A stretch of DNA of 64,000 nucleotides from Naegleria gruberi (lineage: Eukaryota): assembly GCA_000004985.1 (NCBI GenBank), contig GG738845.1; one strand, 5' to 3'. The notes beneath the pieces were generated by a model. That model did not search any database. It had not been told where the DNA came from and saw only the letters and a program-made list of their open reading frames with translations. Below are positions 31,242-64,000 of this stretch, in pieces; positions within the stretch are counted from its first letter, which is position 1; every line of letters begins with the position of its first letter. The position numbers and the translations under genes were made by a program.

Positions 31242-32807
31242 TTATTTTCGAGATTTGTAAGAGTTTTTCTCTTCTTCACTTAGACTCTTCCAAGCTTCTG
31301 CAACTTTTTTTGAAATCTGGTTGATTGTAAGATTAGGATGTTGTTGTTGAAATTCGAGAAAGTGAATTTTGCAGAAAATATTATATGCATTGAGTGGCTT
31401 CTTAAGGACTGGAGTTGAATTTTTTGACTTTTCAATGTAAGGTTGTTTTTCATCATTGGAAAGGGATTTCCACTTCTCACCTATAAATTTAGAAATTTGG
31501 TTAATAGTTAAATCAGGATATTGTTCTTGGAATTCTGGAAAGTGAACTTTGCAAAAAATGTTATATGCGTTAAGTGGTCTTTTGACTCGAGAGTACTTTC
31601 CATTGTTATCCTTAATTATTTCCGAGAATTCATCATCTAATTGAAGAAATAGCTCACTATTCGAAAGGTCTCCCAGTTGAGCGACACCCATAACAACGGA
31701 TCGCTTCAAATAGCGATCACGCTCATCTTGCATTAAAGCTTTCCATTGCTCTCTAAGTAACAATGAATTCGATGCAGCATCTCTATGTAGTGGAACTGTT
31801 TCTCTACAATAAAGTTCAAACCCTAAACGATCCTCTTCAACAACTTCAGCACTTACATTACTTGGGTTGACAGGAGAACTTGATACAGTTGAATGAGTAT
31901 TGTTAGAATCTGATGATTCTAATACTTCGCTTCCTGGATTGATTGATCCATGTGTTGTATCAATTAAGCTAGCTAGCCTTGACCTATCAGCAGATGAAAA
32001 TAGAAAATGCCCATTTCTGTCTTTTCTAAAAAGTCCAGATTTGATATACTTTCTCTTTTTCTTAATACCTTTCTTGTTACTTATTTTGCTATAGTTGTTA
32101 TTGGAGTTTTTAGGTATTATAGAACTTTCAATGGCTGATGATTTATCGAGTTGATTAATTCTTTTATCATCATCTTCCTCTTCACTCTCAGACATGTCAG
32201 AGTCCACAGTACGAATCATGTCTTCCTTTTGATCAGAAACACCTAATGACATAGTTGGTTCATTAGCCAGTGAAATATCAGTGCAAGTTAACCCGTGTTC
32301 ATTTTGAATCAAACTTTCTTTGATCCTATCGAGTACAGGTTGCAAATACTTTCCATATAAAACAGTTGGCATGACAAGTATCTTGGTTTGCTTAGTTTCA
32401 TCTGCATTGAGCACGTTGATGTTACTGAATAAATTGTTTTCATCAATAATGCAATCCTCAATACTGTGGTAAATGATGGAAGAAGATTGGGTTGTGTTGA
32501 TATCCGTATGAATATGTTGTTGTGGCACTAGTTGAAGATGAGTTGGATAAGTATTATTTAAATTATAGTTTGAATGGTCCAACATTGAATTGAAAACAGG
32601 ATTGCTTGATTGAGTGAGGTATTGAGTTAAAACTTGATTAATATTCAAATAACCTGTTTGGGATTGGTTCGTGATTGGACAACCACTACCCAATAGCTTC
32701 AAATGTTCATCAATAGCAGCAGAGATATTTGTCACAAGATTGTTTCTCAAAGGAAAAGATCCTCTTTGTTGCATGAATCCTATATTGTTTGAAGACAAGA
32801 ATTCCAT
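31242..32807 (-). CDS. HMG-box DNA-binding protein of about 521 aa with two tandem, near-identical C-terminal HMG boxes (SOX/MATA_HMG type).
   Basis: Box 1 is VKRPLNAYNIFCKVHFPEFQEQYPDLTINQISKFIGEKWKSLSNDEKQPYIEKSKN. Box 2 is LKKPLNAYNIFCKIHFLEFQQQHPNLTINQISKKVAEAWKSLSEEEKNSYKSRK. Both fit the HMG consensus RP.NAF..F...R......P......ISK.LGE.WK.L...EK.PY. The first ATG in the ORF (32873, alternative start) is at 32807 (MEFLSSNNIGFMQQ). Confidence 0.7.
   Translation of the reverse strand: MEFLSSNNIGFMQQRGSFPLRNNLVTNISAAIDEHLKLLGSGCPITNQSQTGYLNINQVLTQYLTQSSNPVFNSMLDHSNYNLNNTYPTHLQLVPQQHIHTDINTTQSSSIIYHSIEDCIIDENNLFSNINVLNADETKQTKILVMPTVLYGKYLQPVLDRIKESLIQNEHGLTCTDISLANEPTMSLGVSDQKEDMIRTVDSDMSESEEEDDDKRINQLDKSSAIESSIIPKNSNNNYSKISNKKGIKKKRKYIKSGLFRKDRNGHFLFSSADRSRLASLIDTTHGSINPGSEVLESSDSNNTHSTVSSSPVNPSNVSAEVVEEDRLGFELYCRETVPLHRDAASNSLLLREQWKALMQDERDRYLKRSVVMGVAQLGDLSNSELFLQLDDEFSEIIKDNNGKYSRVKRPLNAYNIFCKVHFPEFQEQYPDLTINQISKFIGEKWKSLSNDEKQPYIEKSKNSTPVLKKPLNAYNIFCKIHFLEFQQQHPNLTINQISKKVAEAWKSLSEEEKNSYKSRK
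31260..31600. repeat. Tandem duplication of an HMG-box-encoding unit of about 170 bp inside the CDS.
   Basis: The DNA at about 31285-31450 and about 31455-31610 is highly similar. For example, plus-strand ttatatgcattgagtggcttcttaaggactgg matches ttatatgcgttaagtggtcttttgactcgag. Confidence 0.6.
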
Positions 32808-33168
32808 TGTATCAAGAGTTCTTTGCAAGTTGGTGGTATGGGTGATGTAAATATTATTATTGGCGACTAACAAGATGGTTAGTTTAGAAAATATGGTTGG
32901 TTCAGCTGTTTTTTAAACTTGGTGCCTGCGACAAGCTTCGGATCCTTGATTTACTAGAGGATTACTGGAAATAATATTCAATTAATAATTTAATATTATT
33001 ATTACATGATGATTATTCAACAAAAGTGTGAATTTTAATTTTTGTTAGTGGTTTGTTATGTTTAGGAAAACTAACCTTATGGTGGTTGGTTTGTTTTTTT
33101 GCGTTCGTATTTTTGAAAGTGTCGACAATCGGAGTTTGGCTTAAACGGGTTTATTAGTTTGAAGTAAT

Positions 33169-36100
33169 TTATTGCTGGTTGTTAGGAATTACTGAGCCAA
33201 TATCGTCATCATCATTGAATTCATCATCTTCTTCCATAGTCTTTCTTCTACAAACCATACCTTCCTCACTTTGCTTGAAGCCTTTTTTGTATTCCTTTAA
33301 AGTTTCAGACACTGGTTTGGAGCTCTTAAACTTCTTGTGACCATCAACATTAATATCTTTAGACATGAGTGGTTTCATTGCTGTTTGAAGACTGTTAAAT
33401 AATTGAGGATAAATTAATTCTTGATTAGCTAAGAGTGTCTTGACACGAGCTCTTTCTTTTGGTATTTCAAAACAGGCTGGGCAATTTTCATTAATGACAG
33501 GCAAACCACTTTCCCATGCGAACTTTTTGGTTTCTGTCTCTCTCACATAGATAAGTGGACGAATAACACGTAAATCTCCAACATCAATAGTATAGTGAGC
33601 CTTCATAGTTCTCATAAATCCGTTGTGGAAAATAGACATGATAAAACTTTCAGCTAAATCATCAAGATGTTGACCAAGTACAAGTACATTATAACCTTCT
33701 CTTCTGGCAGTATTGTACAAAATACCTCTTTTCATTCTGGCGCACCAAGCACAAATTGAAGAAGCATCACATTCTTTTGCGCCTTCAATAACAGATTGGG
33801 ATTCATAGAAATATGGAACTCCTAATTGTTTACAATAGTTAATTAATGGGGAAGGGTCATAGCTTGCAGTTTGAGGATCAACTGTACAAGCACCAAATTC
33901 AAAATTGATACCCAAGTTGCTATATTGCAATGCATGTAAAACATGGAGTAATGTTAGAGAATCTTTACCACCAGACAAACCAAGTAATAATCTATCACCT
34001 TCTTTAATCATATCAAACTCACGAATGGCTTTCTTGACAGGTGCCATAATTGACTTGGCATCAACTCTTGGCCACATCTTGTAGTGATTTTTCAAAATTT
34101 CTCTTCGTTTCTTTTCATCATCAACATCTCCCGTAATCTTATCGAAAACCTTTCCATCCAATTTTGGTCTCTTTGGAATATATTTCTTGGAAGCCTCTTG
34201 TTGTTTCCAGTCACCTTCAATTAAATCCTCTTCAATGCATGGCATGTCTAGGATAGAAGATTCAACCAAAGGAGTTACAGAAATAGGTTCAACAATAGGT
34301 GGTTGTGAATCATTTTCAACATTTTCAACAGGTATGATTTCAGAATTAAGTGTTGATTGTATCAAAGAGCTTGTCAATTTGGTATTATTACTTTCATTTG
34401 AGACAAGATTAGAAACATTAAAACCAGTCCATGGATTAAGAATTGATTGTTTGTAAATTTTTGTAATATCACCACCTTGTAATTCTTCAACAATTTGCTT
34501 TGGAAAAACAAACCATCTCCATTTTTCAGCATGATCAATTTGTTCATCCTTTGTTGGGAGATTTTCCTTATTAATAATACTATTTTCTTTCAGCAGGTTT
34601 GTGTTTGGTTTGTTGAGAAGAAGTAAATCTTGATCTACAATTCTATACTTTGGATTTGAGAATTCCTTTACAGCTTGTTCAGCAGACTCTTCAGCTTGTT
34701 TCAGATATGTATCATATTCTTTCTTTGGTGAACTAATCTTATATCCAATTTCTTGTCTATATTCAAGTTTACCATTTTTGTAAGAAATATTTTGTAACCA
34801 TCTTCTTGTTGGAAATTTTCTGTTATTATTATGAATCCATTCGCCTGATTCTGGATAAAAGTAATAATATGGCAAAAACTTGTAGCCATTTTCAGCAACA
34901 AATTTTACGGATTTAACAATATATTGGAATGTATCTTCATCCATAAAATAATTAAAGTTCAAACGAACAAAACCAGGTCTCAAAAACTCATAATCATCAT
35001 CTGATAAAAGTACATTTTCCAAACTCTTAGCATCGTTATATTTGAGACCAAAGAGGAAATGAGAAAATGGACCAGCACATGCACAACCAGATCTAGTTTG
35101 GATGCCAAACAAATCATTCAATAAAATTGAAACAAATGTAGATGGAAGGAAGGAGTTATGGTGTCTTACTAGGAAGCTGAATATTGGTAAACGAGGAGTG
35201 TTCTCATTGTGGCCAAGAATTACCAAATTTCTTGTTGACTTGAAGGATTCAAAAGCACGTTCAGTGAAATTAGTCTCAATTTGTGAAATCAATTGAGTGC
35301 CAACAGCCTGACGAAGTTGGAAAATAAGACCACATCTGACTGATCCTAAAATTTCAGGAGTACCACCTTCTTCTCTTTCATAAGACTTTTTAACATAATG
35401 ATGGTCTCTGTCAGTAACAAAGAATACAGTTCCACCGCCTGGGTTTTCAGGAATCTTATTTTTAAAGAGATGTTTTTTAGCAACAAGTACTCCTGGTGTA
35501 CCTGGACCTCCAATGAATTTGTGAGGACTAAACACAAGAGCATCCTTATAACAGAGAGCTCTTTCCTCGAGAGGAATCTCCTCTGCAACCTTACCAAAAG
35601 TGTGATCTAAATTCTCTGTAGAAACACCTCTTGGATTCATATCTATTTTAACATAAGGAGCTGCACAAGCATAATCCCAAACTACATATCCACCATATTT
35701 GTGAATTAAAATTGAGATCTTGTTAACATTTGGTTCAAGAACACCAGTCACATTTGATGCTGCAGAGAAAACACCAATAAGCATTCTCTTTCCGTTATTA
35801 TAATATTTTAACTTGTTTTCCAAATCCTCAAGATCAGCAACTTCATTTCTAGTTGGGCTAGAATCATTTGATGGTAAATAGAGTTTGATTGGAACAATGT
35901 GACAGCAGGATTCTCTCCAAGGAAGAATATTTGAATGGTGTTCAGCTGGACCAACAAAAACTACAGGTTGTACCTCATCAATTTCTTCACTTGATTCAAT
36001 ACTATAATAATTGTCATAAAATCCATTATTTGATTGCAAATTTTGTAAATTAGATGATAATTTCTTTTTGCTTTGTTGTTGAGAAGAAATGGTAAATTCT

Positions 36101-36746
36101 CTTTCCCATTTTCTTCTTTCCATTTTCATACTAGTTTCACCACCTCTTTCTAAACCCAAAAGATGTACTAATTTGTTAACAGCACTTGTTGAACCACTTC
36201 CACTAAATATTAAAACATCCTTTTTACCACAATTCAATGCATTTCTAATAATATAACGTGATTCATGTCTAAAAAGAGTACTTTGAAGACCAGTAATTGA
36301 ACTTGTTGTGTGTGTATTGGCATACATGGTCATTACTTGTTTCTTCATAAAATCTTCTAAAAAGTTGAGAGATCTACCTGAGGCAGTGTAATCACAATAG
36401 GTTATTTTTCTATAACCAAAAGGTGATTTAAAAACTTCATCATCTCCAATAATTGAATCATGAATAGTTTGTATGAGAGCAGACTTTTCCTTTACTAGAG
36501 ATTCATTATCTAAAATTTAATCAGATAAATTATAATGACTAGATTCAATAGATAATACATACCTGTTAAACTAGCTTCCTCTTCAGTATCGTTTGTTGCA
36601 CTTCTACCACCTGCTTGTTCGTGGTAAGAAACACGGAAGAAGGCTCTTGAACGTTTGGCAATAACAGATTCCTCTTCTTCTAAACCAACATGTTCACTAA
36701 CTGTCGGGATGTTATGGTTGCTATCACCACTATTATCTGTAATCAT
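33169..36746 (-). CDS. Fusion protein of about 1174 aa: an N-terminal class-V aminotransferase/cysteine-desulfurase-like (NifS/SufS/MOCOS-N-like) PLP domain joined to a C-terminal TtcA/TtuA-family PP-loop Fe-S tRNA thiolase domain. Join(36563..36746,33169..36509) on the minus strand.
   Basis: Exon 1 (ORF 36510-36746) ends at a gtatgt donor. A 53-nt intron (plus 36510-36562, acceptor ttttag) joins in frame to ...ITYCDYTASGRSLNFLEDFMKKQVMTMYANTHTTSS, which is like the YLD.A..T.....I..F...V...YGNPHS start of NifS-like enzymes. The PLP-lysine motif is ALVFSPHKFIGGPGTPGVLV. The C-terminal domain has the PP-loop LLLGLSGGKDSLTLLHVL; CAWCARMKRGILY matching TtcA CSLCSRLRRGILY; LGQHLDDLAESFIMS matching GHHRDD; VIRPLIYVRETE matching VIRPLAYCRE; and a second Cys pair NCPACFEIP. 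Confidence 0.7.
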
Positions 36747-60546: not shown

Positions 60547-60596
60547 NNNNNNNNNNNNNNNNNNNNNNNNNNNNNNNNNNNNNNNNNNNNNNNNNN
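60547..60596. other. Assembly gap (50 N) interrupting the 3' end of the CFAP57-like gene.
   Basis: A run of exactly 50 n characters. The ORF-track translation shows X residues here. Confidence 0.95.
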
Positions 60597-61880: not shown

Positions 61881-64000
61881 NNNNNNNNNNNNNNNNNNNN
61901 NNNNNNNNNNNNNNNNNNNNNNNNNNNNNNNNNNNNNNNNNNNNNNNNNNNNNNNNNNNNNNNNNNNNNNNNNNNNNNNNNNNNNNNNNNNNNNNNNNNN
62001 NNNNNNNNNNNNNNNNNNNNNNNNNNNNNNNNNNNNNNNNNNNNNNNNNNNNNNNNNNNNNNNNNNNNNNNNNNNNNNNNNNNNNNNNNNNNNNNNNNNN
62101 NNNNNNNNNNNNNNNNNNNNNNNNNNNNNNNNNNNNNNNNNNNNNNNNNNNNNNNNNNNNNNNNNNNNNNNNNNNNNNNNNNNNNNNNNNNNNNNNNNNN
62201 NNNNNNNNNNNNNNNNNNNNNNNNNNNNNNNNNNNNNNNNNNNNNNNNNNNNNNNNNNNNNNNNNNNNNNNNNNNNNNNNNNNNNNNNNNNNNNNNNNNN
62301 NNNNNNNNNNNNNNNNNNNNNNNNNNNNNNNNNNNNNNNNNNNNNNNNNNNNNNNNNNNNNNNNNNNNNNNNNNNNNNNNNNNNNNNNNNNNNNNNNNNN
62401 NNNNNNNNNNNNNNNNNNNNNNNNNNNNNNNNNNNNNNNNNNNNNNNNNNNNNNNNNNNNNNNNNNNNNNNNNNNNNNNNNNNNNNNNNNNNNNNNNNNN
62501 NNNNNNNNNNNNNNNNNNNNNNNNNNNNNNNNNNNNNNNNNNNNNNNNNNNNNNNNNNNNNNNNNNNNNNNNNNNNNNNNNNNNNNNNNNNNNNNNNNNN
62601 NNNNNNNNNNNNNNNNNNNNNNNNNNNNNNNNNNNNNNNNNNNNNNNNNNNNNNNNNNNNNNNNNNNNNNNNNNNNNNNNNNNNNNNNNNNNNNNNNNNN
62701 NNNNNNNNNNNNNNNNNNNNNNNNNNNNNNNNNNNNNNNNNNNNNNNNNNNNNNNNNNNNNNNNNNNNNNNNNNNNNNNNNNNNNNNNNNNNNNNNNNNN
62801 NNNNNNNNNNNNNNNNNNNNNNNNNNNNNNNNNNNNNNNNNNNNNNNNNNNNNNNNNNNNNNNNNNNNNNNNNNNNNNNNNNNNNNNNNNNNNNNNNNNN
62901 NNNNNNNNNNNNNNNNNNNNNNNNNNNNNNNNNNNNNNNNNNNNNNNNNNNNNNNNNNNNNNNNNNNNNNNNNNNNNNNNNNNNNNNNNNNNNNNNNNNN
63001 NNNNNNNNNNNNNNNNNNNNNNNNNNNNNNNNNNNNNNNNNNNNNNNNNNNNNNNNNNNNNNNNNNNNNNNNNNNNNNNNNNNNNNNNNNNNNNNNNNNN
63101 NNNNNNNNNNNNNNNNNNNNNNNNNNNNNNNNNNNNNNNNNNNNNNNNNNNNNNNNNNNNNNNNNNNNNNNNNNNNNNNNNNNNNNNNNNNNNNNNNNNN
63201 NNNNNNNNNNNNNNNNNNNNNNNNNNNNNNNNNNNNNNNNNNNNNNNNNNNNNNNNNNNNNNNNNNNNNNNNNNNNNNNNNNNNNNNNNNNNNNNNNNNN
63301 NNNNNNNNNNNNNNNNNNNNNNNNNNNNNNNNNNNNNNNNNNNNNNNNNNNNNNNNNNNNNNNNNNNNNNNNNNNNNNNNNNNNNNNNNNNNNNNNNNNN
63401 NNNNNNNNNNNNNNNNNNNNNNNNNNNNNNNNNNNNNNNNNNNNNNNNNNNNNNNNNNNNNNNNNNNNNNNNNNNNNNNNNNNNNNNNNNNNNNNNNNNN
63501 NNNNNNNNNNNNNNNNNNNNNNNNNNNNNNNNNNNNNNNNNNNNNNNNNNNNNNNNNNNNNNNNNNNNNNNNNNNNNNNNNNNNNNNNNNNNNNNNNNNN
63601 NNNNNNNNNNNNNNNNNNNNNNNNNNNNNNNNNNNNNNNNNNNNNNNNNNNNNNNNNNNNNNNNNNNNNNNNNNNNNNNNNNNNNNNNNNNNNNNNNNNN
63701 NNNNNNNNNNNNNNNNNNNNNNNNNNNNNNNNNNNNNNNNNNNNNNNNNNNNNNNNNNNNNNNNNNNNNNNNNNNNNNNNNNNNNNNNNNNNNNNNNNNN
63801 NNNNNNNNNNNNNNNNNNNNNNNNNNNNNNNNNNNNNNNNNNNNNNNNNNNNNNNNNNNNNNNNNNNNNNNNNNNNNNNNNNNNNNNNNNNNNNNNNNNN
63901 NNNNNNNNNNNNNNNNNNNNNNNNNNNNNNNNNNNNNNNNNNNNNNNNNNNNNNNNNNNNNNNNNNNNNNNNNNNNNNNNNNNNNNNNNNNNNNNNNNNN
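61881..64000. other. Assembly gap/unsequenced region (N-run to the end of the window).
   Basis: About 2.1 kb of n characters, read directly from the sequence. Confidence 0.95.

Follow-up and report, generated by a model that had tools for sequence, protein, structure and literature searches.

The locus and its gene

On the minus strand of a stretch of 64,000 nucleotides from contig GG738845.1 of Naegleria gruberi (GenBank assembly GCA_000004985.1), which as a whole is called the window in the following, lies a gene with a predicted product of 1174 amino acids. In this protein a module resembling the cysteine desulfurases, which depend on pyridoxal 5'-phosphate (PLP), is joined to a C-terminal domain resembling TtcA, the thiolase of bacterial 2-thiocytidine at position 32 of tRNA (s2C32). 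A potential donor of sulfur and an enzyme which inserts sulfur into RNA would hence be united in one chain.

An open reading frame of 1059 amino acids is found at 33169..36348 (-), and the same frame stays open upstream to 36509. When joined to a short first exon by removal of one intron (Table 1), the spliced coding sequence has 3525 nucleotides and translates to 1174 amino acids followed by one terminal stop. The single polypeptide with a spliced first exon which the initial annotation of the stretch had put forward, from the letters alone, was in this way reproduced with an in-phase GT..AG join, and the motifs of the PLP lysine, of the start of the first domain and of the TtcA type which it had quoted were all located: YANTHT at residues 124-129, SPHKFIGGPGTPGV at 389-402, SGGKDS at 907-912 and, further into the C-terminal half, CAWCARMKRGILY at 981-993, GQHLDD at 1007-1012, VIRPLIYVRE at 1043-1052, and CPAC at 1071-1074. 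Homology to the orthologue of Naegleria lovaniensis (P0001, 1219 amino acids) speaks for exon 1 and for the splice junction. This orthologue shares the exon 1 block SVIAKRSR(A/E)FFR, SVIAKRSRAFFR is conserved in it, and across the junction it reads ...SVIAKRSREFFR...TDNENL..., the form common to both species being TDNE(S/N)L.

The frame of exon 2 comprises 1112 codons without a stop, for which the local base composition gives a chance probability of ~7e-40; a linker of 100 codons would be open by chance with a probability of ~3e-4. A stop or frameshift between the two halves had been set beforehand as the test of the fusion, and none is present in this frame. Because both catalytic domains are contained in exon 2 in a single frame, the fusion is independent of any splicing. 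Pfam searches with the two halves, which had been recommended as a check, yielded Aminotran_5 (PF00266) with an E value of 1.1e-27 and ATP_bind_3 (PF01171) with an E value of 2.8e-17.

Table 1. Features of the Naegleria gruberi fusion gene, listed in the direction of transcription; positions are those of the window and residues those of the 1174 amino acid reading.
Feature	Position	Strand	Remarks
Exon 1	36563..36746	(-)	Met1 to first base of codon 62; ATG at 36746, GT donor at 36562; contains conserved N-terminal R-x-F motif
Intron	36510..36562	(-)	53 nucleotides, GT..AG (gtatgtatt...aaattttag); removal restores the frame; junction ...SLT|DNESL matches N. lovaniensis
Exon 2	33169..36509	(-)	Remaining coding sequence including the stop codon; holds the two catalytic domains without a break in the frame
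PLP module	34429..36453	(-)	Residues 81-755 (about); type-II SufS/CsdA-like fold with family-specific C-terminal extension ending in RWFxxP (726-731)
Lys392 (SPHK)	35518..35520	(-)	Predicted PLP Schiff-base lysine; aligns with E. coli SufS Lys226; in 100% of 119 sequences
Cys537-Ala-Cys539	35077..35085	(-)	Cys539, predicted persulfide-forming catalytic cysteine; Cys537, invariant second thiol, family-specific
Interdomain linker	34120..34419	(-)	Residues 759-858; disordered, poorly conserved; predicted local distance difference test score (pLDDT) <50 (model residues 697-796); occupancy 0.4-0.6, conservation 0.1-0.15
TtcA-type PP-loop [4Fe-4S] thiolase domain	33349..34068	(-)	Residues 876-1115; by NCBIfam, BLASTP, and Pfam ATP_bind_3
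PP-loop SGGKDS	33958..33975	(-)	Residues 907-912; ATP pyrophosphatase motif; 100% conserved; aligns with E. coli TtcA SGGKDS
Cys981-x-x-Cys984	33742..33753	(-)	First predicted [4Fe-4S] ligand pair; aligns with E. coli TtcA Cys122/Cys125; 100% conserved
Cys1071-Pro-Ala-Cys1074	33472..33483	(-)	Cys1074, predicted third ligand; aligns with E. coli TtcA C210-N-L-C213; 100% conserved
C-terminal tail	33172..33348	(-)	About residues 1116-1174; acidic/basic low-complexity, not conserved; pLDDT <50, low occupancy

The public gene model differs from this reading. The NCBI entry "predicted protein [Naegleria gruberi]" (P0002) has 886 amino acids, with 886/886 identities to the translation of the window in the aligned blocks. 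It starts at an internal methionine, which is residue 191 of the 1174 amino acid reading, and removes three predicted introns, at 35578-35652 (residues 348-372), 34549-34638 (686-715), and 34150-34278 (806-848). Each of these segments runs from GT to AG, is in frame, has a length which is a multiple of three, and is free of stops. All three are conserved in N. lovaniensis and in a homologue from ENA (P0003), the second with 29/30 identical residues, and the first holds a V-x-I-D-M-N-P motif which is found throughout the family. As they are in frame, without stops and conserved, and as the first contains this motif, the segments are most probably coding and the public model most probably wrong; the three-intron structure was therefore disfavoured. 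The N-terminus absent from P0002 in turn holds the near-invariant residues D101, A104, S105, Y124, N126, T127, and H128. Judged by sequence comparison the reading of 1174 amino acids is better than the public model of 886.

The discrepancy might also be taken to mean that two adjacent genes had been read as one, or that the remnant of a pseudogene is seen, since the public model is truncated at the N-terminus and needs three predicted introns. Such an artefact is hardly credible. P0002 too has both Pfam domains, so that these stand in one protein under either gene model, the 1112 codons are free of stops and the catalytic residues are all intact, and the same architecture is encountered in N. 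lovaniensis, Willaertia, Acrasis, and Percolomonas as well as in complete open reading frames from transcriptomes of other eukaryotes.

The desulfurase-like half

The best NCBIfam matches of the PLP module were the SufS subfamily (TIGR01979) with 100.5 bits, which does not reach the threshold of 475 bits, and then CsdA. A profile search against PDB found SufS at 1e-39, and the best solved structures were all desulfurases of the SufS type. An AlphaFold model with a mean pLDDT of 78.9 was compared with known structures by Foldseek, which returned target-normalised template modelling scores of 0.81-0.87 to plastid Nfs2 and to SufS of B. subtilis, S. aureus, and E. coli. BLASTP alignment to E. coli SufS pairs Lys226 with Lys392 (SGHK / SPHK), His123-His124 with His252-His253 (EHHAN / EHHSN), and the catalytic Cys364 with Cys539 (RTGHHCAMP / RSGCACAGP), and the profile alignment to S. 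aureus SufS agrees with this pairing. From these comparisons the module is assigned to the type-II (SufS/CsdA-like) desulfurase fold and not to an IscS-like one. Of the donor proposed in the initial annotation the cysteine desulfurase character is thus retained, with a SufS fold and with Lys392 and Cys539 both invariant, whereas the likening to IscS has to be given up in favour of SufS and CsdA. Loss of the catalytic cysteine or of the PLP lysine had been named as an argument against a desulfurase; both are present in every sequence aligned.

With SufS, CsdA, and Nfs2 the module has in common the fold, the PLP lysine, the histidine pair, and a catalytic cysteine in R-x-G-x-x-C-A-x-P. It differs from them in four respects. 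Where these enzymes read H-H-C the Naegleria module reads C-x-C, SufS having a histidine at the place of Cys537; a conserved C-terminal extension of ~200 amino acids ending in RWFxxP is added; a conserved N-terminal block CDYTASGR/Y(G/A)NTHT is present; and a SufE or SufU partner is not evident, either within the polypeptide or next to the bacterial homologues, which have no conserved neighbour. Pfam and NCBIfam scans of the protein detected no SufE-, SufU-, IscU- or CsdE-like acceptor or scaffold domain. By its invariant C-x-C and its extension, which it shares with its closest relatives, stand-alone bacterial proteins, the module is placed in a distinct subfamily.

This separate position, far under the SufS cut-off, leaves room for the idea that the module is a selenocysteine lyase, or another C-S or C-Se lyase, which serves a seleno-nucleoside or some other pathway. 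SufS/CsdB originally entered the literature as a selenocysteine lyase, as its PDB names still tell, and the automatic annotation of JGI reads 'selenocysteine lyase/cysteine desulfurase'. The catalytic cysteine and the pair of histidines typical of desulfurases are invariant, however, the partner domain is of an Fe-S sulfur-insertion type, and 2-selenocytidine is not known, all of which makes a lyase very improbable.

The TtcA-like half

The C-terminal domain matched positions 21-272 of the 295 in the NCBIfam TtcA profile (NF007972) with 189.9 bits and an E value of 6e-56. Its sister families scored 64.5 bits (TilS_N), 50.2 bits (TtuA), and 33.3 bits (NcsA). TtcA thus leads by more than 120 bits, which bears out the initial annotation, for which a placement in Ctu1/Ncs6 or TilS would have counted as a refutation. 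The curated equivalog cut-off of NF007972, 272 bits, is not reached, and for this reason "TtcA-like" is the accurate label. BLASTP against E. coli TtcA (b1344, translated from NC_000913) found 35% identity over 231 residues with an E value of 1e-39.

An identity as TilS was rejected, as TilS_N stays under its cut-off of 93.6 bits and as the CxxC pairs are invariant; TilS needs no Fe-S cysteines. An identity as Ctu1/Ncs6 was rejected on the scores, NcsA having 33 bits and TtcA 190. Enzymes of the TtuA/Ncs6 type carry zinc fingers with extra cysteines, and in the TtcA-like domain only four cysteines are conserved.

In E. coli TtcA only Cys122, Cys125, and Cys222 are essential, and these ligate the [4Fe-4S] cluster (Bouvier et al., PMC4081106). 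The pair numbered Cys219/Cys222 in that work would be the C210/C213 pair of the RefSeq protein, which suggests Cys1074 as third ligand in Naegleria. Numbering should be transferred with care, since Cys122 and Cys125 match RefSeq MG1655 and Cys46, Cys200, Cys219, and Cys222 of PMC4081106 do not, the RefSeq cysteines of TtcA being at positions 45, 122, 125, 191, 210, 213, 255, and 290 (L001 6014-6949).

Bacterial TtcA shares with the Naegleria domain the PP-loop SGGKDS, the CxxC-RxxRG and GxHxDD motifs, and the second CxxC. It is, however, a stand-alone protein of 311 amino acids which obtains sulfur and cluster in trans from IscS/IscU, whereas the Naegleria domain forms the C-terminus of a chain of 1174 amino acids. 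Ctu1/Ncs6, NcsA, and TtuA belong to the same superfamily and also rely on ATP activation by a PP-loop and on a [4Fe-4S] cluster held by three cysteines, but their sulfur is supplied by ubiquitin-like thiocarboxylates (Urm1, TtuB) and not by a fused desulfurase, and their targets are U34 or U54.

Conservation and domain boundaries

The Naegleria protein was aligned by MAFFT with 118 homologues of 850-1450 amino acids, giving 119 sequences in total. In the PLP half H252, H253, S254, K392, R534, C537, and C539 are conserved in 100% of these. The same applies in the TtcA half to SGGKDS, C981, C984, R986, K988-G990, Q1008, H1009, D1011, D1012, R1045, P1046, C1071, P1072, and C1074. As the linker between the halves is variable while the catalytic residues do not vary, both active sites are under strong purifying selection.

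The initial annotation had ascribed about 600 amino acids of the first domain to low-complexity insertions. The alignment leads to another division, namely ~100 amino acids of inserts, a conserved extension of ~200 amino acids, and a linker of ~100 amino acids. Three inserts, at 181-240, ~357-372, and ~690-716, are confined to the Naegleria lineage; they are poorly conserved, have low pLDDT, and amount to ~100 amino acids in total. The extension after the catalytic cysteine, with a block at ~550-640 and R-W-F-x-x-P at 726-731, is absent from SufS and is also present in the stand-alone bacterial homologues. The C-terminal tail is likewise poorly conserved and of low pLDDT at 1122-1174, and its position is taken in other species by a thioredoxin or rhodanese domain. 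With a predicted template modelling score of 0.72, reached although 17% of its residues are disordered, the AlphaFold model suggests a defined packing of the two domains.

Occurrence in eukaryotes

A word-indexed search of 5.8 billion proteins resulted in 1381 matches, and the architecture is described here for the top 120. All but one of these carry PF00266 and PF01171 together according to precomputed Pfam assignments; in the exception, P0021, only a sub-threshold PF01171 was found on rescanning. A HMMER scan of 1.84 billion cluster representatives detected 1382 clusters at E <= 1e-30. The fusion is therefore not peculiar to this genome, and the question raised initially, whether the architecture occurs elsewhere, can be answered with many eukaryotes. 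Among the top 120 matches are Heterolobosea (N. lovaniensis, Willaertia, Acrasis, where the protein is named ttcA, and Percolomonas), oomycetes (Phytophthora, Pythium, Bremia, and Globisporangium), the ciliate Blepharisma, and the nucleariid-like Nk52. They further include a long series of invertebrates, comprising sponges, corals, annelids, molluscs, a brachiopod, a nemertean, echinoderms, hemichordates, and amphioxus as well as tardigrades, chelicerates, a copepod, mayflies, and hemipterans. No vertebrate member is contained in the top 120, though bird homologues are mentioned in the preprint on Aplysia treated below. Several of the homologues are complete open reading frames from transcriptome assemblies (eukprot TRINITY/TSA), and relatives of the Naegleria gene consequently transcribe both halves together.

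Some members carry a further domain at the C-terminus, which is thioredoxin-like in P0061, P0078, and P0083 and a rhodanese in P0097. These additions fit a chemistry of sulfur relay, persulfide handling, and reduction. Two fusions from metagenomes, P0010 and P0083, are found on contigs with genes for FANCI, axonemal dynein, a PKD channel, and a sulfatase, P0083 standing beside the PKD channel gene. A prokaryotic origin of these two was rejected on account of their eukaryotic neighbours. Homologues of excessive length also occur, such as P0021 of Phytophthora cactorum with 1995 amino acids, and are either extended at the N-terminus or show two Aminotran_5 stretches. Such over-long proteins (up to ~2000 amino acids) are probably merged gene models and not new architectures.

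Stand-alone relatives in bacteria

A profile of the PLP module was used to scan one genome each of 185,579 prokaryotic species. This turned up at least 580 loci, of which the 80 with the best matches were examined. Their products are 41-45% identical to the query over its whole length of 560 residues and derive from Myxococcota, Actinomycetota, Chloroflexota, Acidobacteriota, Gemmatimonadota, and others. All are stand-alone genes for proteins of ~550 amino acids which span the same PLP module, and the signatures of the eukaryotic module recur in them, with R-x-G-C-x-C-A-G-P and SPHK in 79/80 each, EHHS in 80/80, and RWFxxP in 73/80. The active-site loop of this bacterial family reads R-G-G-C-x-C-A-G-P. 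No fusion was seen in these 80 prokaryotic loci. A search of their flanks of up to 6 kb by tblastn with the Naegleria TtcA domain, E. coli TtcA, and the linker located no ttcA, and clustering of the open reading frames around them revealed no conserved neighbour, the best cluster being an ABC ATPase in 12/80. There is consequently no support at the operon level. Very long frames upstream of some bacterial matches (up to 1049 amino acids) were judged to be read-through artefacts of high GC content.

In a crude neighbour-joining tree of the PLP modules, calculated from BLOSUM distances and without support values, the sampled bacterial proteins form one clade which excludes all sampled fusions, with E. 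coli SufS branching far off as the outgroup. The fusion looks specific to eukaryotes and built from a pre-existing family of C-x-C desulfurases. It acts as a Rosetta stone in that it provides a partner and a likely function for this large SufS-like family, common in stand-alone form in soil and marine bacteria.

Relation to the Aplysia protein and to other known systems

An earlier review lists s2C32 and TtcA for bacteria and archaea only (PMC5372739), and both s2C and enzymes of the TtcA type were regarded as prokaryotic until September 2026 (PMC5372739; 10.64898/2026.09.27.754811). In a preprint dated 28 Sep 2026 Huang et al. then reported the first eukaryotic s2C, at position 32 of Aplysia tRNA-Lys(UUU) (bioRxiv 10.64898/2026.09.27.754811). 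These authors describe LOC101861551 of Aplysia californica, an "IscS-TtcA" of 1177 amino acids with CsdA (COG0520) and TtcA-like (cd24138) domains, as the sole TtcA homologue of the genome, with RNA-seq coverage continuous across its exons. They found the fusion conserved in 28 mollusc species, mention matches in birds and insects, and compared the donor domain with IscS, in which comparison they did not find the catalytic cysteine (10.64898/2026.09.27.754811). Besides this preprint, full-text searches of the literature brought up no other description of a CsdA-TtcA fusion.

The Aplysia and Naegleria proteins agree in the order of their parts (CsdA/COG0520, long linker, TtcA-like domain) and nearly in size, with 1177 and 1174 amino acids. 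When compared by the residue list of the preprint, both have the PLP lysine, C-x-C (Cys448/Cys450 in Aplysia, Cys537/Cys539 in Naegleria), SGGKDS, and the cluster cysteines, in CSFC...CPAC and CAWC...CPAC, respectively. Molluscan homologues match the Naegleria protein at ~1e-230 to 1e-240 and have both Pfam domains. The Naegleria fusion is 40-45% identical to the animal proteins and differs from them by its three specific inserts. The alignment with SufS settles the place of the catalytic residue, in that Cys448/Cys450 of Aplysia would be the C-x-C and its second cysteine the equivalent of the SufS nucleophile. The region between the domains is called unconserved in the preprint, whereas in the present comparison the ~200 amino acids which follow the catalytic cysteine belong to the conserved portion of the PLP family.

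The Naegleria gene is thus a new, deep-branching member of the recently described eukaryotic family of CsdA-TtcA fusions, chains of ~0.9-1.3 kaa in which an N-terminal class-V PLP domain is followed by a linker and a TtcA-like domain. Given the preprint and the domain annotations already present in databases, its novelty is limited. New are the catalytic cysteine and the SufS-type donor, the domain boundaries, the deep eukaryotic distribution together with the thioredoxin and rhodanese variants, the bacterial family without a link to ttcA, and the corrected gene model.

Among eukaryotes the molybdenum cofactor sulfurase MOCOS/ABA3 offers a precedent, in which a desulfurase of the class-V NifS-like type is fused to the domain which receives its sulfur. 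The likeness considered here is that of the class-V fold, the acceptor there being a MOSC domain which binds the molybdenum cofactor and not a PP-loop RNA thiolase. DndA and DndC likewise combine a cysteine desulfurase with a PP-loop [4Fe-4S] ATP pyrophosphatase and bring sulfur into nucleic acid, but they are separate prokaryotic proteins which act on the DNA backbone, unlike the single chain of Naegleria. DNA phosphorothioation of the DndA/DndC type was rejected, as PADLOC reported only DndA, at a marginal E value of 0.0024, and no DndC.

Possible function and mechanism

The fusion is probably a bifunctional enzyme which takes sulfur from L-cysteine for the thiolation of tRNA, and the product is most probably s2C32. 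What each half catalyses, how sulfur travels from one domain to the other, what Cys537 contributes, and which tRNA is modified are inferred here from the chemistry of the two parent families. In a first step PLP on Lys392 would bind L-cysteine, and Cys539 would take over the sulfur as a persulfide with release of alanine, as in SufS/CsdA. The sulfur would then pass to the TtcA domain of the same chain or of the partner in a homodimer, either directly or after a step at Cys537. This second thiol may resolve the persulfide of Cys539 to sulfide, leaving a Cys537-Cys539 disulfide to be reduced again by thioredoxin or glutathione, a hypothesis which would account for the C-x-C signature as well as for the variants fused to thioredoxin. 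In the TtcA domain Cys981, Cys984, and Cys1074 would hold a [4Fe-4S] cluster, the free iron of which may bind (hydro)sulfide, while at the PP-loop SGGKDS the target cytidine would be adenylated on O2 at the expense of ATP, with AMP then displaced by the sulfide bound to the cluster. Adenylation and displacement by sulfide have been proposed as the mechanism of TtcA, which is a homodimer and for the activity of which the three cysteine ligands with the [4Fe-4S] cluster suffice (PMC4081106). With regard to the quaternary structure both parent enzymes point the same way, since SufS is a homodimer as well, and sulfur transfer may therefore occur in trans within a dimer. The acidic N-terminus, which is unlike a mitochondrial presequence, suggests a cytosolic enzyme.

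Some points weigh against this reading. The connection of the Aplysia gene with s2C32 is only one of co-occurrence (10.64898/2026.09.27.754811). Both domains score below the cut-offs of their families, TtcA with 190 bits against 272 and SufS by far, with 100 against 475, so that neither is a strict orthologue and substrate specificity could differ. Finally, in the 80 bacterial loci examined the stand-alone PLP proteins never stand beside ttcA and have no conserved neighbour, which shows that this family is not intrinsically dedicated to TtcA.

The same architecture and the same sulfur chemistry could serve another target, be it another nucleoside or position (elsewhere in the anticodon loop, a cytidine of rRNA or mRNA, a uridine) or a carbonyl outside RNA. 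The low TtcA score and the identity of 35% to the E. coli enzyme would agree with this, as would the fact that TtcA, TtuA, and NcsA/Ctu1, members of one superfamily, differ in the positions which they modify (PMC5372739). Moreover, the substrate in Aplysia is tRNA-Lys UUU, whereas E. coli TtcA has tRNA-Arg and tRNA-Ser as substrates. Another target is nevertheless unlikely, since TtcA is by far the best family and its match spans almost the whole profile, since the four conserved cysteines leave none for zinc fingers of the TtuA/Ncs6 type, and since s2C is found at position 32 in an animal which has this fusion as its sole TtcA homologue (10.64898/2026.09.27.754811).

The fused desulfurase might, alternatively, build or repair the [4Fe-4S] cluster of its own TtcA domain, with the sulfur which ends up in RNA coming from another donor. 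In bacteria it is mainly for the assembly of the cluster that s2C32 formation requires IscS and IscU (PMC4081106, PMC5372739), and the TtcA cluster is sensitive to oxygen (PMC4081106), the hosts of the fusion being aerobic eukaryotes. With no IscU-, SufU- or SufE-like scaffold domain detected in the fusion by Pfam and NCBIfam, and with rhodanese and thioredoxin variants which point to trafficking and reduction of persulfides and not to assembly, such a role in place of sulfur donation is quite improbable; the two roles do not exclude each other in any case.

A more far-reaching proposal than the bifunctional tRNA thiolase as such is put forward only tentatively. The fusion may be an ancient, eukaryote-wide, and self-sufficient s2C32 synthase, assembled once, at an early time, from a C-x-C desulfurase of bacterial type and a bacterial TtcA. 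Cys537-x-Cys539 would then be a persulfide-resolving couple which hands sulfide to the cluster, and s2C would be widespread but overlooked in protists and invertebrates and lost in vertebrates, fungi, and plants. That the fusion has all its catalytic residues in a free-living heterolobosean as well as in oomycetes, a ciliate, and many animal phyla argues for an old and broadly eukaryotic pathway and not for a molluscan curiosity. If true, the enzyme would bypass the IscS/IscU or Urm1-type relays of every other characterised pathway of tRNA thiolation. The fusion also offers a single-chain system in which to study the path of persulfide sulfur to the open iron of the [4Fe-4S] cluster, a question which concerns TtcA, TtuA, and Ncs6 alike.

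Other features of the window

The window contains no tRNA genes in its 64,000 nucleotides. Runs of N are located at 60547-60596, a gap of 50 bases in the assembly, and at 61881-64000, which is padding or the end of the scaffold, and owing to the latter the last 2.1 kb of the window are without sequence. The next gene downstream of the fusion, at 31242-32873 (-), encodes a protein rich in asparagine and serine, with a C-terminal tandem of two near-identical HMG-box-like repeats (KRPLNAYNIFCKVHFPEFQ... / KKPLNAYNIFCKIHFLEFQ...).

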